Shown piece by piece: positions 11,677 to 64,000 of a stretch of 64,000 nucleotides of DNA (positions within the stretch are counted from its first letter, which is position 1; every line of letters starts with the position of its first letter). A program made the translations under genes and the position numbers. The notes beneath the pieces were generated by a model. The model saw only the letters and a program-made list of their open reading frames with translations, was not told the DNA's origin and made no database searches. The stretch is from contig CASEZY010000001.1 of NCBI GenBank assembly GCA_949292635.1, forward strand, positions 222,434 through 286,433, written 5' to 3'. The DNA is from an uncultured Methanomassiliicoccales archaeon (GTDB lineage Archaea; Thermoplasmatota; Thermoplasmata; Methanomassiliicoccales; Methanomethylophilaceae).

Positions 11677-11777
11677 AATACCGATGCCGGCACTGTCCCA
11701 GACAGTGACCGGCATCGGTCATGTTTTATAATCTTCCCCACCTTACGCTTCCACTGAACTACAGTATAGGTGGAAGC

Positions 11778-13874: not shown

Positions 13875-13947
13875 AACCCATGGGCGCAGGCGCCTGCCTG
13901 CGTCCATCCTTTTAATACGAAGAAAAAGATACGACAGCAATCCAAAG

Positions 13948-14328: not shown

Positions 14329-14387
14329 GTCCAAATCCCCCGGCACCGCCGGGGTCTCAAAACCCTTCACTGTTCTTATAAACGGGG

Positions 14388-15062
14388 ATGCGATATCGGC
14401 ATCCGATGGATGAGAAGTTCACCTTCGCCCTCAGGAGGATAGCGCTGCTGGGAGGCGTCGACGACTACATAGCAGTGTCCTCCAGGGAGCTGGGGGACGC
14501 CCTTGGCATGAGCCAGCAGTCCGCCTCCAAGAGGATCCTCGAACTGCTGGAGATGGACCTGATCGAACGTGACCTGGGTGCCAGGAAGCAGAAGATCAGG
14601 CTCACCGAGAAAGGCACGGCGGAGCTCAGGAAGGAATACCTGGAGTACCGCAGGATCTTCGAGTACACCGACCAGATGGTCATCCACGGAGAGGTTGCCG
14701 ACGGCATGGGCGAGGGCGGATACTACATCTGCCAGCCCGAGTACGTGGCACAGTTCGAGGACATCCTCGGGTTCACCCCCTTCCAGGGCACGCTGAATCT
14801 GAAGATCGCTACCGACGACATCGGCAAGCTGGAGGTCATCCGCAACTCCAAGGGACATGTGGTCAAGGGATTCACCCGGGACGAGCGCACCTTCGGTAAC
14901 GTGATCGTCTACAAGGCGAAGATCAAGAACATGGACTGCGCCATCATCGTTCCCGAGCGTTCCCACTACCGTGAGATCATCGAGATCATCTGCCACTACC
15001 ACCTAAGACGCACGCTGGGTCTTGACAACGGCAGCAAGGTGGAAGTTAAGGTGGACCTCTGA
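14388..15062 (+). CDS. ribK: CTP-dependent archaeal riboflavin kinase fused to N-terminal wHTH (RbkR-type regulator/kinase)
   Basis: N-terminal HTH (ISSRELGDALGMSQQSASKRI) plus a C-terminal MJ0056-like riboflavin kinase domain (GTLNLK...). Confidence 0.8.
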   Translation: MRYRHPMDEKFTFALRRIALLGGVDDYIAVSSRELGDALGMSQQSASKRILELLEMDLIERDLGARKQKIRLTEKGTAELRKEYLEYRRIFEYTDQMVIHGEVADGMGEGGYYICQPEYVAQFEDILGFTPFQGTLNLKIATDDIGKLEVIRNSKGHVVKGFTRDERTFGNVIVYKAKIKNMDCAIIVPERSHYREIIEIICHYHLRRTLGLDNGSKVEVKVDL

Positions 15063-16046: not shown

Positions 16047-17583
16047 CCTTCACCTCCGCACATCTGTACCATCTGTAAGGGACGTATAGCATCGAGATAT
16101 AGGCCGCCCCTCCGAAGACGACCATGAAGATCCCGATCATGGGGATCGGTCCGACATACGAGGTCAAGAACTCCAACACCGGGATCAGCGAACCCATGGA
16201 GGGGAATCCGGCGTACACGGAGAGTGTGTACAACACCGAGACGTTGCCGAGGATGAGCTGATAGAGGGTGAACGACACCCCCAGCACGATGGTAGGACGG
16301 ATGAGGGCGGGCATGTAGACTGTAGCAAACACCGCAACGAACGGGATCAACAGGACCACGTACTGCGGCGCCGGCGGCCAGAGGAATATGGCGAATGCGG
16401 ACAGCATGATCAATGTCGCCGCCTGCCGGTCGTCCTTATCGTCTATGAACAACAGGCGATAGGCCAGGTAGATGTTCAAGAGTATCGAACAGATCAGGAG
16501 GATGGTGACCACGCGCATGCCCAAGGCCTCGAAGACCTCGGAGAAGGAACCTTCAAAGCTTCCGAAGAGGGTCGTGACGACCACCGCCACCGCGGCGAGG
16601 AGGGCGACCAGCACCAACGCCTTGCGCAATCTCATGTGGAAGGATTCCGTAGGCGCCATCGTCAGGATGCGGGATACGATGTCGGTCCGCTTCACCACAT
16701 ACCACGCGACCGCGATCAGCAGGACGACCGCGGCGAGGAGGGCGATGGTGACGGTGGGTGTGAAGATGGATTCCATCATCTCCGGGGATGCTCCGACACG
16801 GGAGACGATGAAACGCATCGCCTCCCAGAAGTCACCCGTGAGGATGGATGGGAGGAATGTGAGGATGAAGGCCGCCAATGCGCCTGCCACCGCATCAATC
16901 AACGCCTTTGCCCCCCGGGCCGTGAATCCCTCCTTGCGGAACAGGATGGCCACGAGGATGAATATCAGGAACACCGGAAAGAACTTGATCAGGACCGCCA
17001 GCGAGAATGCTGCACCCGCCAGGAAGTACCTGCACCTCGACAGTAGGATAAAGGCCATCAGCGTGCCCAGTACGGCAAGATTGTCGAACATCACATGGAC
17101 GCTGGACTCCAATATCGTCAACGGGCAGAGGAACCAGAGCGCGGATGCGAGCGTCGCCTTCCCCTCTCCGTAGCGTTCGGATACGACCTTGTATATCAGA
17201 TAAGCGACGGCCAGATCCGCCAATATCAGTGGGATCTTGATCACGACGCTGTATGCCATGCTCGGGACCAGAGCGTTCACGGTCATCTCGCTGCCGATGA
17301 ACGGTACCAGGTCCTGAACGAAGGTGCCGTAATCCGTCACCCCCAGCAACGGACATAACAGGGATACGAACGCCAGCACATACCCCCACGGGGGGGTGTA
17401 GAAGTACGACAGGGTGTCGTAGAGGCCCATGCCGTCCTGCTCCGTGGTGATGACCAGGGACCACCAGTTGATGTCGCTGTTGAATGTGAACAACGGGGCG
17501 AGGATCAGACGTATCGCCAAGCCTGCGATGATCATCACTCCGAACAGACTGCGCATCCATTGCTTGACAGATCCCATATCCAC
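16033..17583 (-). CDS. Large integral membrane protein, GT-C-fold glycosyltransferase-like (DUF2029/PMT_2-like)
   Basis: 516 aa with more than 12 TM helices and loops resembling GT-C mannosyl/oligosaccharyl transferases; co-oriented with the secreted protein gene. Confidence 0.4.
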   Translation of the reverse strand: MDMGSVKQWMRSLFGVMIIAGLAIRLILAPLFTFNSDINWWSLVITTEQDGMGLYDTLSYFYTPPWGYVLAFVSLLCPLLGVTDYGTFVQDLVPFIGSEMTVNALVPSMAYSVVIKIPLILADLAVAYLIYKVVSERYGEGKATLASALWFLCPLTILESSVHVMFDNLAVLGTLMAFILLSRCRYFLAGAAFSLAVLIKFFPVFLIFILVAILFRKEGFTARGAKALIDAVAGALAAFILTFLPSILTGDFWEAMRFIVSRVGASPEMMESIFTPTVTIALLAAVVLLIAVAWYVVKRTDIVSRILTMAPTESFHMRLRKALVLVALLAAVAVVVTTLFGSFEGSFSEVFEALGMRVVTILLICSILLNIYLAYRLLFIDDKDDRQAATLIMLSAFAIFLWPPAPQYVVLLIPFVAVFATVYMPALIRPTIVLGVSFTLYQLILGNVSVLYTLSVYAGFPSMGSLIPVLEFLTSYVGPIPMIGIFMVVFGGAAYISMLYVPYRWYRCAEVKDEES

Positions 17584-17839
17584 CCTATCACTTCCAGACG
17601 ATCATACGGCCCTTTGCGGGATCGCAGGACCGTGTCATCAGGCCCTGCCGCAGGACTACCGTCGCATCGAACGTTATGTGTAACAGATTGGCCATATTAA
17701 TCCCGACGTGTGAGGGACGAGTGTTCGAAATGCCGTATCATCAATGTACTATCATGAACATTGATGAACGATGCGGTGAGGAGATCATCCGGCCTGACGG
17801 CCGGATGTTTAGGATCGTGTGCTGCGACACCTTTCGCCC

Positions 17840-18652
17840 TCATCCGATCAGGTGCTTCATCACCGACATGAACACCAGCAAACCGTCCCCCTCCTCGGAG
17901 TCGTAGCCTCTGGTCCAGTCCGGATGGGTGAAGCGGGTGAGCACCCTCTCCGGGTGGGGCATCATGCCCATCACGTTACCTGCGGGGTTGCAGATGCCGG
18001 CGATGTCCGACGGGGAGCCGTTGGGGTTCCACGGATATGCGGCATCTCCCTCGGGGGCCACGTATCTGAAGACGATCTGGTCGTTGTCCTCCAGCTCGGC
18101 GACGAAGTCCGGGTCGCTGCTCAACAGCTTCCCCTCAGCGTGTGCTGACGGGATCGTGAGCACCTTGCCCTTGGGGATCTCCGATGTGAACACGCACTTG
18201 CCGCGGTTGTCGTTCCTCAGCAGGGAGGGACGGCACTCGAAGCGTCCGGAGTCATTGTTGTACAGGGCCGCAGTGGGCACCTGGGTCATGGACTCCTTAA
18301 TCGCGGGAAGGAGACCCAGTTCCACCAGGATCTGGAAGCCGTTGCATATTCCCAGGACGGGCTTCTCCGCGTCCACGAACGCTTTCAGTTGATCTCCCAC
18401 GGATGACTTCAGCCTGGCGGCGAAGATCGCTCCCGCGCGGATGTAGTCCCCTGCGGAGAATCCTCCGGGGAACGCAAGCACGTCGTAATCCTCCAGACTG
18501 CGCCTCATGTCCGCCGGGACCACCCCGGTGAGCTGCTTGATATGGACCTTCTCCGCCTTGGCGCCCACCGTCTCGAAGGCGAGAGCCATCTCGTCCTCGC
18601 AGTTGGTGCCCTCCATGCGGAGCACACAGACCCTAACGTCCTCTGCCTTCAT
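17840..18652 (-). CDS. purQ: Phosphoribosylformylglycinamidine synthase subunit PurQ (glutamine amidotransferase)
   Basis: Start MKAEDVRVCVLRMEGTNCEDE inside ORF 17840..18775; catalytic GICNGFQ and HPE; overlaps the purL stop by 4 nt. Confidence 0.9.
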   Translation of the reverse strand: MKAEDVRVCVLRMEGTNCEDEMALAFETVGAKAEKVHIKQLTGVVPADMRRSLEDYDVLAFPGGFSAGDYIRAGAIFAARLKSSVGDQLKAFVDAEKPVLGICNGFQILVELGLLPAIKESMTQVPTAALYNNDSGRFECRPSLLRNDNRGKCVFTSEIPKGKVLTIPSAHAEGKLLSSDPDFVAELEDNDQIVFRYVAPEGDAAYPWNPNGSPSDIAGICNPAGNVMGMMPHPERVLTRFTHPDWTRGYDSEEGDGLLVFMSVMKHLIG

Positions 18653-45476: not shown

Positions 45477-47228
45477 TCACATCCCCCAGAAAGGTTCCTC
45501 GCGACGTTTGATGCGCAGCACCTCGTCCAGGACCTGCTGCTCGTCGGCGGTGATGCCAAACTTGGGCATCTCCTTCACCGTCGAAGCCAGAAGGTCAACG
45601 TACAGCACATCCTCCTCGTTGGCCTGCCTGCCGATGGTTATGTCGTCTATCGCACAGGCGACCTCGTCGCCCTGCTTGGCCTCCTTGACGGGGTCCTCCC
45701 CATCCCTGAGGCTGCGTATCTTGCCCAGGGGGCGCCCGTCCTCGCCTATCAGCTTCAAACCGGGGCGCACGCGTCCCGCCAGGACACGGATGCCCACGAT
45801 GGCGGGCTTGCTGGCCCTGAATACGTGATTGGGAAGTATCTTGATCTTGGCGGGGAAGGGGAACTCCGCCCGCTTGTCCGCCTCGCTCTGGCGCTTGGAC
45901 TCCTCCACCCATTCCGTGTAATCCTCTATCAGACGGTACACCACGGCGTTGGAGAACACCCTGACGGGTTCCGATTCCAACAAGGACTGGGCGTCCTTGG
46001 ATATGCCCACGTTGAACGCCAGGATGACGCGATTGAACTGCTCGCCCTTGGCGGCGCCGGTCTCCCTGATGTCCCTGCCGGAGATGTCCCCGAGACCGTA
46101 CTTGCGGATGGGTATCCCGGCGGCCTTGGCCTCGTATGCGAGTGCTTCCAGGGACCCGATGGCGTCCGCCTTGATGGTGACTCCCTGTTCCACCACGTCG
46201 ATCTTCACGGAGGTCTCCTCGGTGAGCTCCTTAACCGCCGGGTCCTTGTCGCTCTTGACCACCCTGAGCGGTGCGCCGGCGACCACGCCCTCCATGTTCT
46301 GGCAGGCCACCTTCACTCCCGCGGCCGCGTGCAGTTCCTTGACCTTATCGAAGCGGTCCCTGGGATCCATGATCTCATCCAGGGGCTTGGGCTTGAGGAT
46401 CGCCTTGACCTTGGTGACTATAGGAGCGCCCCTGGTGCCCAGGGCAACGGTGTCCCCCTGCCTGAGCACTCCGGAGTAAAGGATCATGTCCAGGGTCTTC
46501 CCCAGTCCCTTCTCCTCCTTGATCTCCAGGATGGTCCCCCTGCCGGGGCCGTCCTCGCTGGCCAGCTGCGCCTCCAGGAAGCGCTGTGCCAGTCCGATGA
46601 GCATCAGCAGGAGGTCCGGGATGCCCTCTCCCTCCTTGGCGGAGATGGGCACCAATGCGACGGTCTGGGTGAAATCCTCTATCTGATCGTAACGGTTGGC
46701 GTTGATCCCCTCCATGGAGAGGTCGCCGATGATCGAATACAGACGATCGTTGAACGCGTTGAGGCTGTGGTCCTGCTGCTGCCTCTCGGACAGCACGAAG
46801 GGACGTCCCTCCTCGCACTGCCAGCCCTGAATCGTATCCACCTTGTTCAGGGCTATGACGAAGGGGGTCTTGTACTGCCTGAGGATCTTGATGGACTCGA
46901 TGGTCTGAGGCATTATGCCCTCGCGGATGTCGATCACCAGAACGGCGATATCCGCCAGGGAGCCTCCCCTCGCTCTTAGGGTTATGAAAGAATGGTGTCC
47001 GGGGGTGTCGATGAACAGGAGTCCGGGAACATCGAACTTCTTCTTGCCCATCAGCGGCCCGCAGACCTTGTAGATGTGTTCTATCGGCACCTCGGTGGCA
47101 CCGATGTGCTGGGTGATCGCCCCGGCCTCCCGGGCCTGGACGGAGGTGCCCCTGATGCGGTCCAACAGCTTCGTCTTTCCGTGGTCAACGTGTCCCAGCA
47201 CGCTGACCACCGGCTGCCTGATGGTCAT
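45477..47228 (-). CDS. infB: Translation initiation factor IF-2 (aIF5B)
   Basis: G-domain [19 protein letters not shown]; 583 aa. Confidence 0.9.
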   Translation of the reverse strand: MTIRQPVVSVLGHVDHGKTKLLDRIRGTSVQAREAGAITQHIGATEVPIEHIYKVCGPLMGKKKFDVPGLLFIDTPGHHSFITLRARGGSLADIAVLVIDIREGIMPQTIESIKILRQYKTPFVIALNKVDTIQGWQCEEGRPFVLSERQQQDHSLNAFNDRLYSIIGDLSMEGINANRYDQIEDFTQTVALVPISAKEGEGIPDLLLMLIGLAQRFLEAQLASEDGPGRGTILEIKEEKGLGKTLDMILYSGVLRQGDTVALGTRGAPIVTKVKAILKPKPLDEIMDPRDRFDKVKELHAAAGVKVACQNMEGVVAGAPLRVVKSDKDPAVKELTEETSVKIDVVEQGVTIKADAIGSLEALAYEAKAAGIPIRKYGLGDISGRDIRETGAAKGEQFNRVILAFNVGISKDAQSLLESEPVRVFSNAVVYRLIEDYTEWVEESKRQSEADKRAEFPFPAKIKILPNHVFRASKPAIVGIRVLAGRVRPGLKLIGEDGRPLGKIRSLRDGEDPVKEAKQGDEVACAIDDITIGRQANEEDVLYVDLLASTVKEMPKFGITADEQQVLDEVLRIKRREEPFWGM

Positions 47229-48795: not shown

Positions 48796-50049
48796 ATGAT
48801 AGTTGACTTCACCATCGAGAACTTCGGTCCATTCAGAGACGAGACCGTACTGAGCATGCAGGCCACCGGTATGAAGGGGCTTCCTGGAAACATATCGGAA
48901 TCAAAATTCGCGAAAAACGGACTGCTCACATCAGCAATAGTGTTCGGAGCGAACGCTTCCGGAAAATCATACCTCACAAAGGCATTCTCAGCACTGAGGT
49001 ACATGGTGGCTGACACCCGTCACGACGAAACCCAATTCCCCTGGTATCAGCCATTCAGAATGTCCGAGAGGTGCCTGACGTTCCCAGTGCGCATTCGCAT
49101 AAAATTCGTTGAGAAGAGTGTACTGTATGACTATGCGATATCATATTCGGCAGACCGCATAGTCTACGAGCATCTCTACCACTACCCAAAAAACCGCCGT
49201 GCATGCGTATTCCTACGCACAGGCCCATTGACATTCGAACAGGCGAAAAAAAGCATTGCAGGCCTCACAAACGGATCGTCCGCATATCTTGCTGTGGCAT
49301 CCAAACTGAATGATGCCGTATGCAGCATCGTATCCAAATACATCCTTGAGAGAGTAATCTGTCTGGGTTCCAATCTCCTCCCATTGGTAGCTAGATCCTG
49401 CGTGTATCTATCGGAGAGCCAGGACAGGAAAAATATGGCAATGTCCGGACTGAAATACGCCGATTTCGGAATCACAGACTTCCAGTGGACAGAGGAGAGT
49501 GTCGATTCGTCCGAACTGGAGAGACTCATGCCTCCTGAGATGTACCGCGGCATATCAGATGCCGAGAGGCAGACCGTGAAGAGGATGGATATCCGTCTCA
49601 AGCATTCATTCAGAAGTTCGGATGACAGCGGACTTGAGGAGGTCCTCCCTCTGGAAATCGAGTCGTCAGGGACACAGAATATGTTCGGACTTCTAGGCCC
49701 TCTTACTGATGTGCTGAGCAACGGTGGCGTGCTGATCATCGATGAATTCGGCTCCACATTCCATCCCATGCTGTCAAGGTGGATTGTGTCGCAGTTCTCT
49801 GATCAAACAGGCGACATCAGAGCGCAACTCATAGCCAACTCCCATGACATGGAACTGATGGATACAAAGGAGGTACTCCGCAGGGATCAGATATGGTTCA
49901 CCGATAAGGACAGAGCCACTGGAGCCGCGGAGCTCTATGCCCTATCGGATTTCGACGGCATCAGGAAAAACGCAGATATCGCCAAAGCCTATCTGAATGG
50001 AAGGTATGATGCGATTCCGCACATCCTCTCGGGAAAAATGAAGCCATGA
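48796..50049 (+). CDS. AAA_21-family ATPase, AbiLi/RloA-like (defence ATPase)
   Basis: Walker A GANASGKSYLT, Walker B/D-loop VLIIDEFGSTFHP, C-terminal NSHD; 417 aa; visibly AT-richer than the flanks. Confidence 0.8.
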   Translation: MIVDFTIENFGPFRDETVLSMQATGMKGLPGNISESKFAKNGLLTSAIVFGANASGKSYLTKAFSALRYMVADTRHDETQFPWYQPFRMSERCLTFPVRIRIKFVEKSVLYDYAISYSADRIVYEHLYHYPKNRRACVFLRTGPLTFEQAKKSIAGLTNGSSAYLAVASKLNDAVCSIVSKYILERVICLGSNLLPLVARSCVYLSESQDRKNMAMSGLKYADFGITDFQWTEESVDSSELERLMPPEMYRGISDAERQTVKRMDIRLKHSFRSSDDSGLEEVLPLEIESSGTQNMFGLLGPLTDVLSNGGVLIIDEFGSTFHPMLSRWIVSQFSDQTGDIRAQLIANSHDMELMDTKEVLRRDQIWFTDKDRATGAAELYALSDFDGIRKNADIAKAYLNGRYDAIPHILSGKMKP

Positions 50050-50654
50050 TCGTCGAACCGAGAGACAGAAGACGGAAGAGAAGGAAACCCAAGAACACCG
50101 CGCTTATCGTCGGTGACGGGCGAACCGAACAGCTGTACTTCGAATCCCTCAACAAGAGGTATGGCAAAATCAGCATCATATCCCTCGGAACCAGGAAAAC
50201 CGGTATCGACCAAAGCATCAGGTTTGCAAGAAATGTTGCAAAACACAGACAGTTGAACACCAGTGATGGAGACCTAGTGGCAATCGTGATGGACATCGAC
50301 GGCAGATATTATGAGGAAGACATTGCCAGAATGTACAGGAAGTGCAAGGAGAAAGGATATTCTCTGTTCCTGTCTAACCCTTGCATCGAAATCTGGTTCC
50401 TGCTCCATTACGAAGGAGTTCGTTGCGAATGCACACAGCACGAAGCACTTCATATGCTTGAGGCCGCCAGCAAAATGAAGTATTCGAAATCGAAGTCTTT
50501 CGAATTCGATGATGTGATGCTGAGAGAGGCTATGAAACGTGCAGAAAAAATCCTTCCAACGGAAGAATGCTGCCCGTCTGAATGTCTGAAAAGGAACCCC
50601 AGCACGATGCTTCACGTGCTAGTAGGCAACCTGCTAAACCGCCCCGAGCAATGA
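50046..50654 (+). CDS. RloB-like protein (AbiLii-like, Toprim-related) partner of the AAA_21 ATPase
   Basis: RloB signature ALIVGDGRTEQLYFESL near the N-terminus; start overlaps the ATPase stop (ATGA); 202 aa. Confidence 0.75.
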   Translation: MIVEPRDRRRKRRKPKNTALIVGDGRTEQLYFESLNKRYGKISIISLGTRKTGIDQSIRFARNVAKHRQLNTSDGDLVAIVMDIDGRYYEEDIARMYRKCKEKGYSLFLSNPCIEIWFLLHYEGVRCECTQHEALHMLEAASKMKYSKSKSFEFDDVMLREAMKRAEKILPTEECCPSECLKRNPSTMLHVLVGNLLNRPEQ

Positions 50655-52910: not shown

Positions 52911-54080
52911 ATGGCGGAGATCCTGCGGGATGAATACCTTCGGAGGCTGGAGTCCTTCCGCGGCCGGCCGGACCTGGTCAAGATACTCACAGGGGTCAGG
53001 AGGTCCGGCAAATCCACCATCCTCTCGCAGTTCCGCAGGAGGTTGGAGGCATCCGGAGAGGAGGTGGTCTCCGTGGACATGGAGGCGATGTCATTCGTGC
53101 TGACCACCGGCCGCGACCTCTACGATTACCTCAAGGAGAGGATGCCCTCCCCGGACTGCGCCGTACTGCTGGATGAGGTGCAGTACGTCGACGGATGGGA
53201 GAAGGTTGTCAACGCGCTGCGTGCGGGAGGAGCGGACGTATACGTCACCGGCTCCAATGCCAAGGTATTGTCATCGGAGTTCTCCACCATGCTTGCGGGA
53301 AGGTATGCGGAGATACACGTTCTGCCGTTCTCGTTCAGGGAGTTCCTGGAAAGGTACCCTCCTCACGGCGATGTTCGCACCTACGCCCGCTTCGAACAGT
53401 ACCTGAGATACGGCGGGCTGCCCATAATCGATCTTGACGATGACCCGGGGAAGAACAGGGTGATCATGAGCGGCGTCTACGATTCCGTCGTCGGAAGGGA
53501 CATAGCCTCCAGGGCGGGGGTCGAACTGCGCACCGTGGAACGTATGACCAGGTTCATGTACTCCAACGTGGGGAACATCACCACACTGTCTTCCATCACC
53601 TCCGGGTCCGGCATATCGGACAGGCGCACCGCGGACAGGTACCTGTCGGCGATCACGGACTCCTACGCATTCTATCGTGCCGATTCCTACGACCTGGTTG
53701 GGAAGCGCCCCATGAGGGTGAAGGCGAAGTACTATGCGGCTGACACCGGGCTGCGGAATGCGGCGCTGGCACACTCGGATGACGATGCATCCGGACTGCT
53801 GGAGAATGTGGTGTTCCTGGAGCTGAAGAGAAGGGGGTGCTCGGTGGCCGTGGGCTCGTACCGTGATTACGAGGTGGATTTCACCGTCAGGAAGGATGCG
53901 GGCGTGGGGCTGATCCAGGTGTGCAAAACGTTGGTCGAAGACAGCACGCTGGACAGGGCGCTCAGGCCGCTGAGGCTGGCGGAAGGGACGAATAAGATCG
54001 TTCTGACCATGGACAGGGATCTGCCTGATGATACGGATGAGGTGTCCTTCGTCAACCTTACGGATTGGCTGATGTCGTAG
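52911..54080 (+). CDS. AAA+ ATPase of the COG1373 type (ATPase plus DUF4143 C-terminal domain)
   Basis: Walker A TGVRRSGKST, Walker B VLLDEVQ, C-terminal DUF4143-like region; AT-rich promoter region upstream. Confidence 0.75.
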   Translation: MAEILRDEYLRRLESFRGRPDLVKILTGVRRSGKSTILSQFRRRLEASGEEVVSVDMEAMSFVLTTGRDLYDYLKERMPSPDCAVLLDEVQYVDGWEKVVNALRAGGADVYVTGSNAKVLSSEFSTMLAGRYAEIHVLPFSFREFLERYPPHGDVRTYARFEQYLRYGGLPIIDLDDDPGKNRVIMSGVYDSVVGRDIASRAGVELRTVERMTRFMYSNVGNITTLSSITSGSGISDRRTADRYLSAITDSYAFYRADSYDLVGKRPMRVKAKYYAADTGLRNAALAHSDDDASGLLENVVFLELKRRGCSVAVGSYRDYEVDFTVRKDAGVGLIQVCKTLVEDSTLDRALRPLRLAEGTNKIVLTMDRDLPDDTDEVSFVNLTDWLMS

Positions 54081-55781: not shown

Positions 55782-56630
55782 GTGATTAACGTGACGTCGC
55801 CATCCGAGGATGTAAACTCCGAACCGTCTGCAAAGAGGCACACTGTTCCTACTTTACAGACAATTCGGGAAATATACCAGTACCGCAACATCCTGTGGGC
55901 ACTGGTACGCAGGAACATCGTCGGAAAATACAAGAGCTCGTTCCTGGGATTCGCCTGGCACTTCATCACCCCGCTGTGTCTGATCGTCCTGTATTATGTA
56001 GTGTTCACAGGAATCAGAGCAAACCCGATAGAATCCTACTGGATATACCTTGGCTGTGGAATCTTTCCTTTCAGTTTCATGAATTCTAATCTGATATCTG
56101 GATCTGGGTGCATCTTGAATAATGGAGGGTACATCAGTAAGATGTACTTCCCACGTGAGATTGTCCCGCTGGCACAGGTGACGAGTTCGTTCATCATCAT
56201 GCTGTTCGGATATGTAGTGATCATGATTCTGACAATAGCATCAGGATTCACTCTCAACCCGATTGCCTTGCTTACGATTCCAGTGATGTTTGTCCTGAAC
56301 TACATCTTCGTACTTGGTATGGTGTTGCTTATGTCCTCGATAACCGTCTACGTCAAGGATATCCAGCATCTTCTGACATCAATGTCCATGGTGTTCTTCT
56401 TCACCACACCCATGTTCTATCTCGCCAGCGAGACCACCGGAATTCTTAGCAAATTAATATGGGTGAATCCGTTCACCTACTTCGTAGAAGCATACCACAG
56501 CATCGTTTACTTCGGCACGATGCCAAGTATTGAGATCACAGTAGCCTGCACAATACTAGCGGCTGTGTTCCTGGTGGTCGGTGCCATCGTGTTCAAACGT
56601 CTGAAGAGAGGTTTCGTGGAGAGGTTGTGA
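55782..56630 (+). CDS. ABC-2 type polysaccharide export permease (Wzm/KpsM/TagG-like)
   Basis: Six TM helices and a YRNILWALVRRNIVGKYKSSFLGFAWHFITPL N-terminal signature; apparent GTG start; AT-rich. Confidence 0.8.
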   Translation: MINVTSPSEDVNSEPSAKRHTVPTLQTIREIYQYRNILWALVRRNIVGKYKSSFLGFAWHFITPLCLIVLYYVVFTGIRANPIESYWIYLGCGIFPFSFMNSNLISGSGCILNNGGYISKMYFPREIVPLAQVTSSFIIMLFGYVVIMILTIASGFTLNPIALLTIPVMFVLNYIFVLGMVLLMSSITVYVKDIQHLLTSMSMVFFFTTPMFYLASETTGILSKLIWVNPFTYFVEAYHSIVYFGTMPSIEITVACTILAAVFLVVGAIVFKRLKRGFVERL

Positions 56631-58645
56631 TGAAGCCGGACAGCGCGATCGAACTGCATGACGTCAGCAAATCCTTCAGGATACAGATCAGGAACTCAGA
56701 TTCGGAGAAGCTGTTCTTGCCGAAGGCACATTCCGTCAACAAGGTGCTGGATGACGTGAGTCTGACTGTGAAGAAGGGTACCGTGATGGGGATCCTTGGA
56801 CGCAACGGCAGCGGGAAGAGCACCATCCTGAAGATCATCTCCAGGATCATGGAGCCGGACTCCGGTACTGTGGAGATTGGCGGGAAGCTCGCCAGCATAT
56901 TGGAACTGGGGATGGGGTTCCACCCGGATATGTCCGGCAGGGAGAACATCTACATCAAAGGCGAAATGTACGGGTTCTCCCGGAAGCAGATCGAGGAGAG
57001 GATTGACCAGATCATCGAATACTCTGGGATAGACAGGTACATCGACAATCCTGTGAAGACGTACTCCTCAGGAATGGTGGGCAGACTTGCGTTCGCCATT
57101 ATGGTGAATGTGGATGCCGATGTGTTGCTGGTTGACGAGATCCTCAGCGTGGGAGATGCCGCGTTCTCCGCCAAGGCCGCCGAACATTTCAAGAAGATGG
57201 CCAAGAGCGGGAAGACCGTGCTGTTCGTATCTCACAACATAAACTTCCTAGAACAGATCTGCTCGCGTGCCATTTGGATTGAGAACGGGAAGATCGTCGA
57301 GGACGGCCCCGCCAAGAAGGTGTGCTCGATCTACCGCAACCGTGTTTCCGAATCCTTCGACATAATATCTGATCTGGCACATTCCGGAGTGGCCGATGCC
57401 CAATATAAACTTGCCATGATGTACCACAACGGCACGGATGTGCTTCCGGACGAGGGTCTTAGCGCTTTGTGGATGAAAAGGGCTGCAGAGCAGGGGAACA
57501 CACTGGCACAAGTGCGGTATGCAGACATGCTGATGCAAACTGGCTCATTTTCTGATGCTGAAGATGCCATCAACTTCTACAAATCTGCGGCTAATGCCGG
57601 GAATGAAGAGGCCCGGATGAAAATTTCATCATTGTCAAGGCACGAAGGTCTGAATCAAGACCTAGAGGCCGTGAAAGACATCTTCAGACAGTTGGCAGAG
57701 AGGGAAGATCCACTGGACATGTACCGCTATGCAGACCTTCTGCTGAAGACCGCTTGGAGTGATGAAGATCGTGTCAAGGCGTTTGAATGGTTCGTGAAGG
57801 CATCGGACGCTGGAAATGCGGATGCTATGCATTCAGCTGCTATAATGCTGCGTGACGGGAAGGGCGTGGCCAAGGATATCGAAAAATGTGTCTACTATCT
57901 TGAAATGGCTGCGAAACTGGGTCTTCAGAGATCGCAAGTATTGCTTGGTGATCTTTACTACGAAGGTAAAATCCTAGAAAAAGATGATACCAAGGCCATT
58001 CATTGGTATGAAACGGCTGCGCTTACAGGCAACCCTCGCGCACAATACATGACCGCCATCATGTATAGGGACGGACTTGGTACGGACCAGAATGTAACCA
58101 AAGCTGAAGAATGGTTCACGACTTATGTCCATTCATCAGCTACACAGCATATGATCTGGGCCGGAGACGCACTCAGATACGTAGATTTGGAGACTAAGTA
58201 TAGCCCTACTGACCTTTATAAAATGGCCTCAAAATACCATAACCTCTATGGAGACCTCATCCTGGGCAATACCTACCACGACGGAATATACGAAGTTCGT
58301 AACGATGCGACGTCACAAATGTATTATGAAAAATCTGGGAGTCTATGGGGTACGTGGAGGACATCACTGGCAAGGGTACTGATGATCACAGAGGGCCTTA
58401 ATAATATTGCTAGGATTATTGAACTTTACGAGCAGTCGGGTGCTTGTGGAGACGGAGAGGCACTATATCGCCTATCTTTAATCTACAACAATGGTTTGGG
58501 TGTTCCCAGGGACGAATTAAAGGCCAAGTCATTGGCATTAAAAGCTGCAAGATATGGAAACATTTCAGCGTGCAGAGCTATTGTTAAAAATCTTAAGAAC
58601 ATCGACATGCCTGACATTCTAAAATCGTCTAACAAAGATGAATGA
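56627..58645 (+). CDS. ABC exporter ATP-binding protein (Wzt/KpsT/TagH-like) fused to a C-terminal domain of about 11 Sel1 repeats
   Basis: GRNGSGKST, LSGGM-like signature, LLVDEIL Walker B in the first about 240 aa; then repeated Sel1 units (AQYKLAMMYHNG, GNTLAQVRYADML, GNADAMHSAAIMLRDGKGVAKD, GNPRAQYMTAIMYRDGLGTDQN ...). Confidence 0.85.
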   Translation: MMKPDSAIELHDVSKSFRIQIRNSDSEKLFLPKAHSVNKVLDDVSLTVKKGTVMGILGRNGSGKSTILKIISRIMEPDSGTVEIGGKLASILELGMGFHPDMSGRENIYIKGEMYGFSRKQIEERIDQIIEYSGIDRYIDNPVKTYSSGMVGRLAFAIMVNVDADVLLVDEILSVGDAAFSAKAAEHFKKMAKSGKTVLFVSHNINFLEQICSRAIWIENGKIVEDGPAKKVCSIYRNRVSESFDIISDLAHSGVADAQYKLAMMYHNGTDVLPDEGLSALWMKRAAEQGNTLAQVRYADMLMQTGSFSDAEDAINFYKSAANAGNEEARMKISSLSRHEGLNQDLEAVKDIFRQLAEREDPLDMYRYADLLLKTAWSDEDRVKAFEWFVKASDAGNADAMHSAAIMLRDGKGVAKDIEKCVYYLEMAAKLGLQRSQVLLGDLYYEGKILEKDDTKAIHWYETAALTGNPRAQYMTAIMYRDGLGTDQNVTKAEEWFTTYVHSSATQHMIWAGDALRYVDLETKYSPTDLYKMASKYHNLYGDLILGNTYHDGIYEVRNDATSQMYYEKSGSLWGTWRTSLARVLMITEGLNNIARIIELYEQSGACGDGEALYRLSLIYNNGLGVPRDELKAKSLALKAARYGNISACRAIVKNLKNIDMPDILKSSNKDE

Positions 58646-58648: not shown

Positions 58649-59458
58649 ATGCCGGACCAGGGGGAAAAGAGTATGGATAAGATGATATTGATTGCCGGAC
58701 CGTGTGTCATTGAATCCCAGCAATGTCTAGAAACGGTCGCCCCTCACATCGCAGACATCTGCGATGATCTAAACATCGACTATTTCTTTAAATCATCATT
58801 CGACAAAGCAAATCGCACATCAGTAAGTTCTTTTCGCGGACCCGGTATGGAAAAGGGCATCGAAATGCTTCAAAAAATCAAAGATGAATTCGGTGTGAAA
58901 ATAACCACAGATATACACGAGCCGAACCAGGCGGCCCCTGTAGCAAAGGTTGCAGATATGATTCAAATCCCAGCATTCCTCTGCAGGCAAACCGACCTTC
59001 TAATTGCTGCTGGCCAAACTAATCGCATCATCAATGTGAAAAAAGGCCAATTCATGGCACCGTGGGATATGAAAAACGTGATTGGTAAACTCGAATCCAC
59101 TGGAAACAAAAAAATTATGCTCTGTGAGCGTGGCACATCATTCGGGTATAATCGCCTTGTAGTAGATATGGCTGGGATATATGAGATGAAAAAACTAGGA
59201 TATCCCATAGTTTTCGATGCCACCCACTCTGTTCAGCAGCCTGGCGGAGGAAACGGGTTCACCACAGGTAACAGAGAATACATACCCACCCTCACCAGAG
59301 CTGCCATCGCAGCGGGAGCAGAACACTTATTCATGGAAGTTCACCCTGATCCTTCCAAAGCATTGTCTGATGGACCCAATTCTCTTGAACTCTCCGAGGT
59401 CCGCAACCTGTTAGAAAAAGTCGTAGAAATCAGAAATGTTATTGGTGACTCAGCATGA
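58649..59458 (+). CDS. kdsA: 3-deoxy-8-phosphooctulonate (Kdo-8-P) synthase
   Basis: LIAGPCVIES N-terminus, KSSFDKANRTS, and the C-terminal-region motif EVHPDP; about 265 aa DAHP/KDO8P synthase family. Confidence 0.85.
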   Translation: MPDQGEKSMDKMILIAGPCVIESQQCLETVAPHIADICDDLNIDYFFKSSFDKANRTSVSSFRGPGMEKGIEMLQKIKDEFGVKITTDIHEPNQAAPVAKVADMIQIPAFLCRQTDLLIAAGQTNRIINVKKGQFMAPWDMKNVIGKLESTGNKKIMLCERGTSFGYNRLVVDMAGIYEMKKLGYPIVFDATHSVQQPGGGNGFTTGNREYIPTLTRAAIAAGAEHLFMEVHPDPSKALSDGPNSLELSEVRNLLEKVVEIRNVIGDSA

Positions 59459-60426
59459 ACGACAACTATCTGGACTCCGCTCAATATGTTTTTGATAAGG
59501 AGATAGAGGGCTTACTTTCGCTCAAAAACAACCTCGGGGAGTCATTCAACAGGTTCGTAGACGAAATTGATTCTTGCAAAGGCCACATCATATTCATGGG
59601 TGTAGGAAAAAGCGGCCATATCTGCCAGAAAATAGTTGCTACAATGCAAAGCCTAGGCATAAAAACATTCTTCCTGCATCCGACGGAAAGTTTACACGGG
59701 GACCTCGGATCAATTTCCAAAGAGGACATTGTTATCGGCGTGAGTAATAGCGGCGAAACCTCTGAGCTCCTTGGAACAATACCTTCCATCAGGATAATAG
59801 GTGCCAGACTTTTTTGCATAGTTGGGAGGGAAAACTGCACACTCAGTAGAAGTTCTGAGATAACTCTGCTGATGCCCAACATGAAGGAAGTGTTTCTAGA
59901 CAACATGGTCCCAACTACATCCACTACTGCAACACTGGTATTGGGTGATGCTTTAGCAGTATGCATAGCTGAAAAACGCGGGTTTACTAAAAGTGAATTT
60001 GGAATCTATCATCCCAACGGGGCATTGGGGAAAAGACTTACGATTAAAGTCTCAGACATCATGTCTAAGGACATCCAAAACACAACGGTTCCATGCGGTT
60101 CAACCATAAGAGAAGCTGTTGTGACCATGTGTGGATCGTCCATGGGCGGAATATGCGTCGTCAAAGACGGTCAACTTCAAGGTGTATTCACAGACGGGGA
60201 TCTGCGCAGACATCTCAATAAGTACGGAGATGAGGCCCTCGAATATGTTATTGACGATGTGATGACCAAAAAATGTACGACCTTGGATTATGACACGCTG
60301 GCATACGATGCGATAGAACAGGTTGTTACCAAAAGTGCCGTATCGTTCTATCCCGTTCTAAAAGATGGGGAATATGCCGGCGCCATTAGAACGCTGGACT
60401 TTGTCCATTCAGGACTGATGAAATGA
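59455..60426 (+). CDS. kdsD: Arabinose-5-phosphate isomerase (SIS plus tandem CBS)
   Basis: SIS motif FMGVGKSGHI...GVSNSGET plus C-terminal CBS pair; 4-nt overlap with kdsA. Confidence 0.85.
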   Translation: MNDNYLDSAQYVFDKEIEGLLSLKNNLGESFNRFVDEIDSCKGHIIFMGVGKSGHICQKIVATMQSLGIKTFFLHPTESLHGDLGSISKEDIVIGVSNSGETSELLGTIPSIRIIGARLFCIVGRENCTLSRSSEITLLMPNMKEVFLDNMVPTTSTTATLVLGDALAVCIAEKRGFTKSEFGIYHPNGALGKRLTIKVSDIMSKDIQNTTVPCGSTIREAVVTMCGSSMGGICVVKDGQLQGVFTDGDLRRHLNKYGDEALEYVIDDVMTKKCTTLDYDTLAYDAIEQVVTKSAVSFYPVLKDGEYAGAIRTLDFVHSGLMK

Positions 60427-60896
60427 TCAAAAAACTGATTATGGATGTAGACGGCACAATGACTGATGGCAGAATCAACATAGCCCCATCAGGAGAGTTG
60501 TTCAAATCGTTCGATGTCAAGGACGGTTATGGAATAAAGATGCTCATTAACGCTGGAGTAGAACCAATAATAATCACGGGTAGACGCTCAGATATCGTAT
60601 CTCTGCGTGCGAAAGAACTGGAGATCTCAAGTGTATATCAAGGGATATCGGATAAAGCCGAATGCCTACAAAACATAATGGAAAAAGAAGCCTTATCTCC
60701 GGATACTGTGGCATACATAGGGGATGATATAAACGATTTGGAAGCTATGAAACTGGTAAGACACACATTTGCACCGGCGGACGCTTCAGAGGATGTGCTG
60801 AACTATGTCAATCAACGCCTAAACAGCACCGGTGGACACGGGGCGATAAGAGAGTGTGCAGAAGTGATTCTAAAAAAGAATCAGGAGACGGTATGA
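60423..60896 (+). CDS. kdsC: Kdo-8-phosphate phosphatase (HAD family)
   Basis: HAD motif I MDVDGTMTDG and GDDINDL; about 157 aa, typical KdsC size. Confidence 0.8.
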   Translation: MIKKLIMDVDGTMTDGRINIAPSGELFKSFDVKDGYGIKMLINAGVEPIIITGRRSDIVSLRAKELEISSVYQGISDKAECLQNIMEKEALSPDTVAYIGDDINDLEAMKLVRHTFAPADASEDVLNYVNQRLNSTGGHGAIRECAEVILKKNQETV

Positions 60897-61672
60897 TGAA
60901 GATAATTGGTGTGATTCCTTCAAGATACGCATCGTCCAGATTTCCTGGCAAACCGCTGTCAGACATTTGTGGAAAACCTATGGTTTGGTGGGTCTACAAC
61001 CAGGCAAAATGTGTGAAAGAGCTGGACGAAGTGATTGTTGCTACAGAGGACGAGCGTATCACGGACGTTTGTGAAAAGTATGGGATTCCATCAATTATGA
61101 CGTCTGATAAACACAAAAATGGCACAGAGCGCCTTGCCGAAGTAGCGGCCAAAATAGAGGCGGATCTGTACGTCACGATACAAGGCGATGAACCTCTCAC
61201 ACAACCTAGCGACATCTCCAAATTGATTCGTTTCGCTTTATCAACAGATGCGCCCTGTGCAACTATGAAAACCGCATACAGGAATCCTGTGGATGTCATC
61301 AACTCAACAACGCCAAAAGTTGTCTCTGATTTGGATGACAATATTTTATTATTTACGAGATCGCCAGTGCCATATCCTAAAGCAGATCTGGATTACATCA
61401 TCTGGAAACCTATTGGAATATACATTTTCAAAAGAGATATTTTGCTGAAGTACCCTCAATTAAGGATGGGGCCGCTGGAAAGAGCTGAAGAAATTGAACT
61501 TCTTCGCTTCATTGAAAATGGATACAAGATAAAGGTGATTGAAACCGAGTCAAGTACAATTGCAGTAGATACTGAGAAAGATCTCAAAAAAGTAATTAAT
61601 ATGGCCAAAAACCTCTGTGATGATGACCCAGAATCCTATTTCATACATAACTTTAACAGAGGTGTCTGCTAA
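60893..61672 (+). CDS. kdsB: 3-deoxy-manno-octulosonate cytidylyltransferase (CMP-Kdo synthetase)
   Basis: Start MMKIIGVIPSRYASSRFPGKPL, QGDEPL motif; overlaps the kdsC stop. Confidence 0.85.
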   Translation: MMKIIGVIPSRYASSRFPGKPLSDICGKPMVWWVYNQAKCVKELDEVIVATEDERITDVCEKYGIPSIMTSDKHKNGTERLAEVAAKIEADLYVTIQGDEPLTQPSDISKLIRFALSTDAPCATMKTAYRNPVDVINSTTPKVVSDLDDNILLFTRSPVPYPKADLDYIIWKPIGIYIFKRDILLKYPQLRMGPLERAEEIELLRFIENGYKIKVIETESSTIAVDTEKDLKKVINMAKNLCDDDPESYFIHNFNRGVC

Positions 61673-61977: not shown

Positions 61978-63657
61978 ATGGGAAGCATATACTATGTCGA
62001 GCGGAACGGGCAGAAGTATGCCTACGAGAGCGTATCCAGACGTGTGCCGGGGAAGAAGAATCCGGTCACCGAAAAGACGTATCTCGGCAAGGTGGATCCA
62101 GAGACCGGCAAGATAATTCCCAAGGAATCCAAGAAGGTCCCGACAGAGGAACATGTCCGCAAGTATGGATGTGTGACGGTCCTCGACAGGATCCAGAACG
62201 ATCTGGGCATATTGGACGACCTCCGCGAATGCTTCCCGGATGTCGCGGAGAACATCATGGCCACGGCAATGGCCGTGGCCATCGACCCCACACCGTTCGA
62301 CGATGTCCATTTCACCGTGGATGAGAACGGATTGAAGGACAGGCTGCGGCTCCGCGGCAGCCTGTCCCCTCCCGTGCTGTCCGACCTGACCAAGGACCTC
62401 GGCCAGAGGTTCTCGGCAATGGACACCTTCTTCACACGTCGTGCCGAGAGGACGATGAAGGGTGGCACCTACGCGATCGACATAACATCCAATTCCACCT
62501 ATTCGGATATGGGCGGATATGCGGAATGGGGCTACAACCGCGACGGCGAGAACCTTCCCCAGACCGGGATCGTCCTCGTAACCGACGGTTCGGGCATACC
62601 GATCGCGTTCCAGATGCTGCCTGGATCGATCGCGGACTCGGCATCGTTGCAGAGTACTGTGGAATGGATGGGATCCATAGGCGTCGCAGGCAGACTGGTG
62701 GCGGACCGCGGGTTCGAGAACGCGGGGAACATGGCCGCGCTGCTGGACCGCGGGATACCATTCACCATCCCGTCCAACGCACGTGAGATGCCGATAAAGA
62801 AGCTCATGACGAAGGCGAAGAGGATCATGAAGGACTCGGACTCCATCCGCAGGCACGAAGGGAGGACGTACAGGGTGGCCGAGTTCGAGGTCGGCATCGC
62901 CGACCTCGAGAGCGGCCACCGCTACGTCACGAGATTGGACGCCAACGAGAAGGGTGCAGGATCCGAGAACGAGCTGTTCGAAACATCCCGCAAGATCAAG
63001 GCGTTCGTCGTCCATGATTCCCGCAAGGCGGCCGATGACATGGATTCCCTGATGTCGGCCATCGAAAGGGCCGAACTCGAACTGGAGGGCACGGTCAGGA
63101 AGGATCCGGCCAAGGAATTCAACAAACTGCCGGCGTTCGTCCGTTCCCATCTGGATTGGACGGTGGATGAGGATGGTGCGATGCACATCGAGAGGCTCCA
63201 GAACTCGTTCTCGTTCGATTCGAACAGGGCAGGGATGTTCATCATGTTCGCCTCGATGGACACGGACTGGGAGACGATGATGTCGTCATACGACACAAGG
63301 GACTGGGTCGAGAAGGCCTTCGACGTCTACAAGACGGACACGGACGGGCCCCGGTCTAGGACCGGGGACCCCGACCGTGCCCGTGCGAGGTTCTTCATCA
63401 GGATGCTGGCACTGATCATGCGCATCACGATTCAGAACAGACTGAGGGATCACGAGAGGGAGATACTGGCGTCGAAGAGGGAGAGGGACGACGTCTGCGG
63501 ACTGTCTGTCAACTCCGTGATGAGGACCCTCGGGACGCTGATGGTGATCGTGAGTCCGGGCTATGTGAGGCTCACGCCACCCTCCAAGACGGTGATGGAG
63601 ATCTTCTCCCTGTTCGGGCTCGAAGAGCCCGTGGCGGGGAGGATCGCCTTACCATGA
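61978..63657 (+). mobile_element. IS1634-family transposase gene (DDE)
   Basis: N-terminal YYVERNGQKYAYESVSRR motif and VADRGFENAGN DDE region typical of IS1634/ISH-like transposases; 559 aa; native-like GC. Terminal inverted repeats not confidently identified. Confidence 0.75.
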
Positions 63658-63798: not shown

Positions 63799-64000
63799 TT
63801 AGTCCAGTATTACCAACGCCTCATTCAAACTTTCCGGCGTATCGATTTCCCAAAGAATAAGAATCAATTCAGTCCTTGCCCACGAAAGGTTTTGATTGAC
63901 CGCCTTGCGCATCCATTCGGCAGCCTTATTCAGATCCCTCTCAACACCTTTGCCGTCACGGTATGCACGACCCAGTCTGGCCTGCATCTCCCGATCATTT
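63799..64000 (-). CDS. Sel1-repeat protein, C-terminal part (gene continues beyond window end)
   Basis: Sel1 consensus LGRAYRDGKGVERDLNKAAEWMRKA; the reading frame is open to the window edge. Confidence 0.55.
   Translation of the reverse strand, partial: NDREMQARLGRAYRDGKGVERDLNKAAEWMRKAVNQNLSWARTELILILWEIDTPESLNEALVILD

Follow-up and report, generated by a model that had tools for sequence, protein, structure and literature searches.

Fusion of a Wzt-type transporter ATPase with Sel1-type repeats at variable glycan loci of Methanomethylophilaceae

The wzm-wzt locus

The window analyzed here is a 64,000 nucleotide (nt) stretch of contig CASEZY010000001.1 (assembly GCA_949292635.1, positions 222,434–286,433) from an uncultured Methanomassiliicoccales archaeon of the Methanomethylophilaceae; positions given without a locus number are those of the window. 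The open reading frame at 56627–58645 on the plus strand encodes a predicted ATP-binding cassette (ABC) transporter ATPase of the Wzt type, the C-terminal region of which consists of Sel1-type repeats. It lies next to a permease gene, wzm, and is termed wzt here. Genes for the synthesis of 3-deoxy-D-manno-octulosonic acid (Kdo) follow, and further downstream are an insertion sequence (IS) and the end of a second Sel1-repeat gene (Table 1). Related loci and homologous proteins are referred to by L and P numbers, respectively.

The wzt reading frame is uninterrupted and has 672 amino acids (aa) when counted from GTG. The sequence at the start reads gtgATGaag, and the ATG at position 56630 gives a Wzt of 671 aa and a one nt overlap (TGATG) with the wzm stop codon, TGA 56628–56630. 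The ATG appears more likely to be the start than the GTG at 56627, because P0001, a homologue 97% identical to the window Wzt, is also 671 aa in length. The wzm stop thus overlaps the wzt start, and wzt appears to be translationally coupled to wzm. The wzm gene is found directly 5′ of the fusion gene in all 15 gene-called loci; L117 shows only an unannotated 166 aa fragment, at a contig end.

The first 240 or so amino acids had been described from the sequence as a polysaccharide-export nucleotide-binding domain (NBD), and database searches bear this out. Pfam places ABC_tran at aa positions 41–172 (E 1e-21). The top three NCBIfam matches of aa 10–239 are TagH, the galactan Wzt/RfbE and again TagH. 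The scores are under every equivalog cut-off (195.5 vs 538, 190.3 vs 400 and 177.7 vs 320 bits, respectively) and since the curated scores are not reached, Wzt is a member of the class but the equivalog of no named transporter (TagH, RfbE). A PDB sequence search with the NBD finds Aquifex Wzt (6AMX/8DKU, E~1e-58) and also TarH, TagH and Mycobacterium abscessus RfbE. Foldseek aligns the NBD with Aquifex aeolicus Wzt (8DNE/7K2T/6M96) at 40–41% identity and a root mean square deviation of 3–4 Å. In an alignment of 54 sequences the Walker A motif (G58–T66), the signature (Y146–M150, YSSGM-type) and Walker B (D170–E171) are invariant, and the H-loop histidine H203 is nearly so.

The best NCBIfam match of Wzm is the galactan export permease Wzm/RfbD, again under the equivalog cut-off. 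On the basis of the NBD, the permease partner and the gene context, the gene is placed as the ATPase subunit of a predicted glycan ABC exporter of the Wzm/Wzt-TagGH class. A KpsMT group 2 capsule exporter was considered and rejected. The permease scores 23.8 bits against the 300-bit KpsM cut-off, KpsT is more remote from the NBD (27% identity, Foldseek rank 32) and a Capsule_synth domain (KpsC/KpsS) is present in none of the loci examined. KpsF- and KpsU-like genes (kdsD, kdsB) are present, but these are common to general Kdo synthesis.

The Sel1-repeat tail

The remaining part of Wzt, about 430 aa, was initially read as some 11 Sel1-type repeats. Eleven helix pairs are seen in the structural model and seven of them are recognizable by sequence. 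Failure to score with a Sel1 hidden Markov model (HMM) had been named beforehand as an outcome that would refute this; the whole Wzt protein scores 153 bits against the Pfam cut-off of 30.7. When single units are scanned, R1, R2, R4–R7 and R11 score as Sel1 (E<1e-3), while R3 and R8–R10 are degenerate.

The AlphaFold2 model, built with the 54-sequence alignment, has a mean predicted local distance difference test (pLDDT) score of 87.1 and a predicted template modelling score of 0.75. It displays the NBD followed by approximately 23 helices at aa positions 244–656, i.e. 11 helix pairs and a capping helix, which form an all-helical solenoid of about 430 aa. The pLDDT is mostly >90 over the repeats, including the proximal R1–R7; the distal R8–R11 are also helical at >90. 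It is <50 at aa 658–672, the C-terminal end. Within the NBD, aa 22–33 are poorly modelled (pLDDT <50 at aa 26–32); the stretch lies near the N-terminus, where it is inserted between beta-strands 1 and 2.

Foldseek matches the tail at probability 1.00 with the Sel1-type proteins 6OK3, 4BWR (EsiB), 8SXQ (LceB) and 6DEH (LpnE). AlgK (7ULA_B) gives a weak match in the PDB sequence search (E 1.8e-7). Residues of R1–R7 that are invariant in the family are G269, Y298, L302, A314, A329, G411, G413, G432, G468, A477, G483 and W496.

In characterized Wzt proteins the C-terminal extension is a beta-sandwich carbohydrate-binding domain (CBD), and the contrast with this domain, drawn in the initial annotation, is upheld. 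The Wzt_C carbohydrate-binding domain (PF14524) is not found in Wzt at Pfam E≤0.01 and the C-terminal region is all helical at high confidence, so a CBD-bearing Wzt was rejected.

No transmembrane helix or signal peptide is found in Wzt with 19 aa hydropathy windows. The hydropathy maximum is 1.66 and is located within the NBD; the Wzm control reaches 2.78 and has four windows over the transmembrane cut-off. Because the tail follows a cytoplasmic NBD with no hydrophobic segment, the Sel1 solenoid is predicted to be cytoplasmic, on the same side as the NBD, where bacterial Wzt carries its CBD. The tail is thus a bona fide Sel1-like repeat (SLR) domain and not a secreted SLR protein.

Distribution of the fusion

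Both Pfam domains are present in all 120 of the best listed homologues from a collection of 5.8 billion proteins (NCBI, ENA, JGI and Logan assemblies). When 1.84 billion representatives were searched exhaustively with HMMER, at least 56 clusters (50% identity) were found in which the best alignment spans the NBD and continues into the Sel1 repeats, at identities as low as approximately 34%. Chain lengths in the family range from 620 to about 1020 aa. An artefact of assembly, frameshift or read-through joining two genes, which had been named as a concern, has a negligible probability, as the reading frame is continuous, the same architecture recurs in these homologues and clusters, and AlphaFold is confident over the junction (pLDDT 82–89 at aa 230–260). 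The wzt-Sel1 gene is real, intact and conserved.

Family members with a source name all come from Methanomethylophilus alvi, ‘Ca. Methanarcanum hacksteinii’, Methanomethylophilaceae or a ‘Thermoplasmata archaeon’, and no bacterial NBD-Sel1 fusion is present among the homologues carrying such a name. The taxonomic range given here is that of source names and locus contexts. A scan of GTDB species representatives used an alignment of the junction and proximal repeats as query; peptide patterns proved to be generic Sel1 motifs. Among the matches listed, L009 (Thermoplasmata archaeon) is the only true fusion. L010–L088 are ordinary bacterial Sel1 proteins with the exception of L085, which is archaeal (Methanomassiliicoccaceae) and has Sel1 repeats only. 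A metagenome scan shows about 10 fusion loci, all 46–63% identical, which are too few and too distant for statistics on tails versus cassettes.

Database labels of the members are limited to ‘ATP-binding cassette domain-containing protein’ or ‘SEL1-like repeat protein’. Full-text literature searches on Wzt with Sel1 or tetratricopeptide repeats (TPR), which were of incomplete coverage, gave no description of an NBD-Sel1/TPR Wzt. The architecture had been called unusual. This is correct in comparison with characterized bacterial Wzt proteins, but not within the Methanomethylophilaceae, where the NBD-Sel1 architecture is the rule and not a singleton.

Cassettes downstream of wzt

The survey of other genomes that had been proposed shows that Wzt-Sel1 fusions recur and accompany varied glycan gene cassettes. 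In relatives, the chromosomal position of wzm-wzt is unchanged: the pair follows PGI, a Band_7 protein and ribosomal genes. The syntenic loci adjoin genes for the archaeal ribosomal proteins L7Ae, S28e and L24e and for a 583 aa IF-2-family (aIF5B-type) translation factor; the window open reading frame 45477–47228 has the same length and strand as this last gene and is correspondingly placed.

The cassettes found behind wzt are of at least nine kinds, in two lineages. L001–L003 have kdsADCB, a 1174 aa Sel1 multidomain protein, glycosyltransferase family 2 (GT2) genes and Glf. L004/L005 display GT2, Ugd, a 583 aa Sel1 protein and a double GT2, and L006 a dehydrogenase, IspD-like cytidylyltransferases, an epimerase and a Sel1-LicD fusion. 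L007 contains genes of cytidine monophosphate (CMP)-ulosonate type, a double GT2 and Glf. The M. alvi group is the second lineage, with its own conserved flank and wzm, and four further cassettes are found there (L089, L091, L116 and L117). The L090 and L093 cassettes are of pyruvyl-transferase/GlfT2-like and dTDP-aminosugar type. Overall, the related loci carry GT2, Glf, GlfT2-like, Ugd, rml, LicD/IspD and CMP-ulosonate genes; the kds genes are missing from most cassettes. The locus has the layout of ABC-transporter-dependent polysaccharide synthesis, with a serotype-like diversity, and wzt marks the border of this hypervariable region of low GC content.

Several cassette proteins contain Sel1 blocks of their own: the 1174 aa protein of L001, the 583 aa protein of L004, the Sel1-LicD protein of L006, proteins of L092, L116 and L117, and the partial gene of the window. 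The complete ones (1174, 583, 523, 827, 593 and 509 aa) have no transmembrane or signal segment. The partial protein L006_512 has one hydrophobic window, at aa 298.

The tail of the 848 aa Wzt of L089 (M. alvi, wzt at 10001–12547) contains a segment with 49% identity to the Sel1 block of the L006 Sel1-LicD protein and 61% to the partial Sel1 gene of the window, compared with 32–41% to other Wzt tails. Because the segment matches the enzyme blocks at 49–61%, it indicates that Sel1 modules may have been exchanged between exporter tails and enzymes.

The 1174 aa protein of L001 (15119–18643, minus strand) has an N-terminal domain with a GASGGIDST (PP-loop-like) motif and, behind a Sel1 block in the centre, a C-terminal domain of about 470 aa. 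A remote relationship (22% over 267 aa) links the latter with a 470 aa protein in the ulosonate-type cassette of L007 (12744–14156, minus strand). A Kdo or ulosonate transferase or a terminator was sought in the cassettes. Neither Pfam nor the PDB gave a match for the N- and C-terminal domains of the L001 protein or for the L007 protein, and these are put forward as candidates for a Kdo or ulosonic-acid transferase not described so far. In L006 (15936–17474, minus strand), Sel1 repeats at aa 1–200 are fused to a LicD-family phosphotransferase, beside IspD-like cytidylyltransferases and a dehydrogenase. This context suggests a glycan decorated with ribitol- or glycerol-phosphate in an archaeon.

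Mosaic divergence of wzt

The divergence of Wzt is not uniform along the chain. P0002, P0003, P0004 and P0006 show 96–97% identity to the window Wzt in the NBD, 83–88% at aa positions 241–499 and only 42–46% at 500–672. Among close relatives with NBDs that are 95–99% identical, R1–R7 (aa 256–505) are 83–89% identical and R8–R11 (aa 506–656) 40–66%. The distal repeats of P0001 are 98% identical to those of the window, and the two have kds genes in common. In 61 homologue pairs the NBDs are at least 90% identical; the median identity of these pairs is 95% in the NBD, 87% in the middle part and 47% at the C-terminus. Pairs with 100% identical NBDs have tails that are about 50% identical. In each of two lineages, several cassettes stand behind near-identical NBDs (95–100%) and the distal repeats there are approximately 25–50% identical. 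Over the whole family, mean pairwise identity is 23–35% in the distal repeats vs 42–84% in the NBD. The reverse pattern, distal repeats better conserved than the NBD as expected for a module moved between backgrounds, was found in only one trivial group among the 120 homologues.

The nt sequences show the same trend. Identity of the window with L004/L006/L007 is about 91–100% up to 57.5 kb, about 80% at 57.6–57.9 kb, about 65% at 58.1 kb and, further on, about 50%; past the wzt stop codon no alignment is possible. With L001, wzm is 71–85% identical, but the 3′ end of wzt and kdsA–C are 97–100% identical. The wzm gene is itself a mosaic: at 55834–56500 the window is 71–85% identical to L001, L004 and L006 with flanks at 95–99%, and the L007 wzm is 99% identical to the window over 55984–56133. 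It appears that wzm alleles recombine independently of the downstream cassette.

Kdo genes and other features of the window

Table 1. Predicted genes and wzt segments in the window
Feature	Position (nt)	Strand	Basis or remark
wzm, ABC-2 type permease, partner of the ATPase	55782–56630	+	Pfam ABC2_membrane, E 7.5e-16
wzt part 1, NBD, aa 1–240	56627–57346	+	ABC_tran; probable start ATG 56630
wzt part 2, proximal Sel1 repeats R1–R7, aa 256–505	57392–58141	+	conserved part of tail
wzt part 3, distal repeats R8–R11 and capping helix, aa 506–656	58142–58594	+	hypervariable part of tail
wzt part 4, disordered C-terminal end, aa 657–672	58595–58645	+	TGA stop 58643–58645
kdsA, Kdo-8-phosphate synthase	58649–59458	+	NF003543, 409 vs 242 bits
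kdsD/kpsF, arabinose-5-phosphate isomerase, SIS + CBS	59455–60426	+	TIGR00393 KpsF/GutQ, 246 vs 203.7 bits; Pfam
kdsC, Kdo-8-phosphate phosphatase	60423–60896	+	TIGR01670, 156 vs 107 bits
kdsB, CMP-Kdo synthetase	60854–61672	+	NF009905, 266.5 vs 255 bits
IS1634-family transposase gene	61978–63657	+	NF033559, 190 vs 100 bits
Second Sel1-repeat gene, 3′ end, cut by window edge	63799–64000	-	translation

The kdsA gene begins 3 nt past the wzt stop codon, and the order kdsA-D-C-B is continued with spacings of 3 nt at most or with overlaps. All four genes score above at least one curated NCBIfam cut-off. The start of kdsB is probably the ATG at 60893, which overlaps the kdsC stop. The guanine plus cytosine (GC) fraction of the 55.5–61.8 kb region is 0.40–0.56, mostly <0.50, vs about 0.60 elsewhere, and it drops from about 0.52 to 0.44 across the distal part of wzt. 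KdsA is 100% identical in the L001 genome. Since relatives of KdsA beyond L001 fall to 63–76% identity and the only organism named among them is Paenibacillus vini, the data suggest that the CMP-Kdo pathway, which is complete in this archaeal genome, was acquired from bacteria. A literature search gave no title on kds genes in archaea or methanogens.

The transposase gene after kdsB has a GC fraction of 0.57–0.61, which is genome-like, within a region of about 0.43. It is absent from the corresponding position in L001–L003. Similarity between the window and L001 is 89% in kdsB and stops at the kdsB end, and the Sel1 gene past the IS differs between the two. IS elements also adjoin wzt in L008, L089, L090, L091 and L116.

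A separate Sel1 gene past the IS had been noted, and it is indeed present, on the minus strand with its stop codon at 63799–63801. The last 66 codons are Sel1-like and contain RLGRAYRDGKGVERDLNKAAEWMRKA. The best local matches are to the L006_512 Sel1-LicD fusion (62–66%), the L089 Wzt tail segment (61%) and L092_827 (52%). The partial gene is a member of the cassette-borne Sel1 class.

On the other side of the locus, an AbiL-type anti-phage pair is at 48796–50654 and consists of AbiLi (AAA_21; PADLOC E 3e-80) and AbiLii (RloB; E 5e-22). The pair is kept at the same position in L001, L002, L004, L005 and L006. An AAA_14/DUF4143 ATPase at 52911–54080, present in the window and in L006, matches the PADLOC candidate PDC-S01 (E 1e-111). 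L003, L004, L005 and L007 instead have a pair of 163–167 aa and 670 aa (AAA_21) proteins between Band_7 and PGI, and neither is found in L001. The region resembles a small, variable site for defence genes adjoining the glycan locus.

Comparison with known systems

The CBD-type Wzm/Wzt exporters of Escherichia coli O9a, Klebsiella pneumoniae O12 and Aquifex aeolicus (6AMX, 7K2T, 8DKU) are similar to the system described here in the class of NBD, in having an ABC-2 permease gene just upstream and in being located in glycan clusters. In these exporters also, the C-terminal extension varies more than the NBD and differs from one cluster to the next; in the present family such a pattern is seen, with crossover positions that vary and with L092 as an exception. 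The adjacent Kdo genes of the window recall the Kdo-capped O12/O4 chains of K. pneumoniae. However, the extension in CBD-type Wzt is a jelly-roll beta-sandwich of about 150 aa that forms a strand-exchange dimer (PMC9445017), whereas the present extension, about 430 aa long, is an all-alpha Sel1 solenoid. The present host is an archaeon with no outer membrane, lipopolysaccharide or cell wall.

The TagGH/TarGH and mycobacterial galactan Wzm-Wzt (RfbD/RfbE) exporters provide the top NCBIfam matches of both NBD and permease, and the solved structures of TarH, TagH and M. abscessus RfbE are close to the NBD in sequence and fold. The likeness extends to the gene content of related loci, which repeatedly display Glf/GlfT2-like genes or LicD/IspD genes of the ribitol-/glycerol-phosphate type. 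Unlike the protein described here, the chains of RfbE and staphylococcal TagH in the solved structures have the size of an NBD (260–264 aa) and no large C-terminal domain. Bacillus subtilis TagH (527 aa) does have an extension, but this is membrane-spanning and extracellular and is not a cytoplasmic Sel1 solenoid.

The Sel1 proteins of known structure, Oxalobacter 6OK3, E. coli EsiB (4BWR), Legionella LpnE (6DEH) and LceB (8SXQ) and Helicobacter pylori HcpB/HcpC, are of the same repeat family and have the same superhelical fold. These bacterial proteins are stand-alone, mostly secreted or periplasmic, and function in host interaction; here the repeats are a domain of a transporter.

Helical repeats on or together with components of polysaccharide synthesis and export are also found in TviD/VexE (Vi antigen) and AlgK (alginate); AlgK is an SLR protein, and SLR/TPR proteins of this kind act as scaffolds in polysaccharide secretion. 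In these cases the repeats are on modifying enzymes or periplasmic scaffolds and not on the ABC ATPase itself, and AlgK and its relatives act outside of the cytoplasm, whereas the Sel1 tail is predicted to be cytoplasmic.

Possible function of the tail

The Wzm/Wzt exporter would move a lipid-linked surface polysaccharide across the single membrane of the archaeon. Kdo is probably a component or the terminal residue of the polymer exported here, as kdsADCB is located directly 3′ of wzt. In M. alvi the cell is bounded by a single membrane and has neither an S-layer nor a cell wall (PMC10673518), and the exported lipid-linked glycan would thus form the cell surface.

The mechanism of the tail is a proposal. 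The solenoid may serve as a docking platform. At the mouth of the transporter it would hold the machinery of glycan assembly, or the finished chain which this presents, and docking would couple glycan synthesis to export. R1–R7 would supply constant contacts and R8–R11, which are swapped with the downstream cassette, variable ones. Cytoplasmic cassette enzymes with their own Sel1 blocks are candidate partners. SLR and TPR solenoids are chiefly protein-binding modules. In the Vi antigen system, the glycosyltransferase TviE is bound by the TPR domain of TviD and thereby held at the membrane; TPRs are also present in VexE (PMC8760489). Because of this protein-binding property, the TviD precedent, the Sel1 blocks on cassette enzymes and the exchanged segment of L089, the preferred reading is that the tail serves for docking and so couples the exporter to enzymes of glycan assembly; the chances of this being correct are about even.

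A number of observations weigh against this proposal. The wzm-wzt pair is the sole sequence common to all cassettes and is a natural homology arm for cassette exchange; thus its 3′ part must travel with the cassette, whatever its function. The point at which divergence begins is also not fixed. Compared with P0018 it is at aa ~180 (P0098), 330 (P0030), 390 (P0048) or 480 (P0011), and across pairs it ranges from aa ~180 to 500. L092 is a more direct counter-example. Its cassette (9163–17994) is that of L004 (GT2/Ugd/Sel1/double-GT2), with proteins 82–96% identical and a PGI flank at 96%, and there is no L004-type wzm-wzt between PGI and the cassette. The Wzm/Wzt pair of L092 is on the opposite side of the cassette and is only about 35% identical, and the distal repeats are 26% identical to those of L004 vs 23–25% to others. 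L092 may have two exporter types, or two glycan clusters that adjoin one another. A cassette of this kind with an unrelated tail argues against strict matching of tail and cassette.

The evidence for partners is also uneven. A second Sel1 open reading frame was found by our own HMM within the flanks of only 5 of 16 scanned fusion loci, to which Pfam adds two outside of that scan (L116 and L117); because of these counts a dedicated Sel1 partner is not universal. The suggestion that enzyme-borne Sel1 blocks form a distinct ‘tag’ subfamily was dropped, as they are 24–45% identical among themselves vs 22–30% to Wzt tails, a marginal difference. The distal repeats as a strong specificity determinant were likewise downgraded, in view of the variable crossover points and L092. 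The mosaic pattern is compatible with a functional matching of tail and cassette, but falls short of proof.

The main rival to docking is that the solenoid is a functional analogue of the CBD. Its distal repeats would bind the residue or modification at the non-reducing end of the finished chain, possibly Kdo in this case, and export would be restricted to terminated chains. The tail stands where the CBD stands relative to the NBD, a full CMP-Kdo pathway is found directly after wzt, and the distal repeats are both the most variable and those that change with the cassette; the window and P0001 share kds genes along with nearly identical distal repeats. There is precedent in bacteria, where such exporters pass only terminated chains and the CBD is serotype-specific (PMC11231755, PMC9445017). 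Terminal beta-Kdo is a known cap and export signal in K. pneumoniae O12 and O4 (PMC11231755), and work on E. coli O8/O9a that PMC11231755 and PMC9445017 cite has shown specificity to be determined by the Wzt C-terminal domain. On the other hand, the closest solved relatives of the tail are helical Sel1 proteins with no stated sugar-binding role, e.g. 6DEH, which is named as a protein-protein interaction protein. The same cassette occurs with unrelated tails in L004 and L092, and most cassettes are devoid of kds genes, so Kdo is excluded as the general ligand. No terminator (kinase/methyltransferase or GT99-type Kdo transferase) was found in the cassettes, the candidate domains having no Pfam or PDB match. 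Recognition of a cap by the tail is thus considered unlikely, though it is to be taken seriously.

A second alternative, which is likewise doubtful and ranks after the binding of a chain terminus, is that the role of the tail is regulatory or architectural and that substrate choice does not depend on it. It could serve in dimerization or stabilization of the NBD, in modulation of the ATPase, or as a spacer or ruler, and the variability of the distal repeats would reflect relaxed constraint and hitch-hiking with the hypervariable cassette next to them. This would account for the distal repeats being the least conserved region family-wide, for the scattered crossover points and L092, and for the wide variation in tail length (proteins of 620 to ~1020 aa). 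However, a confident solenoid of 430 residues has been kept in at least 56 clusters with invariant residues through R1–R7, which implies strong selection for a specific function. The recurrence of Sel1 blocks on cassette enzymes, with segments swapped with Wzt tails, points instead to a shared interaction system.

It is very improbable that the protein is a ‘eukaryote-like’ Sel1 factor for adhesion or host interaction in the gut adaptation of Methanomassiliicoccales: genome comparisons do count the Sel1 proteins of the host-associated clade, on average 9.3 per genome and 28 in ‘Ca. M. alvus’, as such factors (PMC7883539, PMC4153887), but the repeats are joined directly to a cytoplasmic ABC ATPase, and neither a signal peptide nor a transmembrane segment is present, and the cassette-borne Sel1 proteins examined are similarly fused to or flanked by glycan-synthesis enzymes and have no evident route to the surface. 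The published adhesin interpretation conflicts with these members at least.

To return to docking, a broader form of the proposal is that host-associated Methanomethylophilaceae have swapped the CBD of Wzt for a cytoplasmic Sel1 module, a new class of module for coupling or recognition, which gathers Sel1-tagged enzymes or the capped chain at the transporter and the exchangeable distal repeats of which set ‘serotypes’ at a hypervariable glycan locus of a wall-less archaeon. This broader form is tentative, and the chances are somewhat against its being correct.

Significance

Wzm/Wzt exporters are a model for how completion of a polysaccharide is checked before export. To our knowledge, every characterized Wzm/Wzt completeness checkpoint uses a beta-sandwich sugar-binding domain. 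A conserved family with a solenoid in place of the CBD suggests that there is a second way to couple synthesis and export, and offers a defined system open to testing.

In the wall-less Methanomethylophilaceae the exported glycan is probably the actual outer surface of the cell. The presence of many cassettes at one chromosomal position points to serotype-like surface variation in gut archaea, and this bears on interactions with phage, the immune system and the host. The findings also question the adhesin interpretation of the Sel1 expansion, as the examples described here are predicted to be cytoplasmic and are found within glycan-synthesis loci. If the broader proposal is true, much of the Sel1 expansion in gut methanogens would represent intracellular scaffolding for glycan assembly and not eukaryote-like adhesins.

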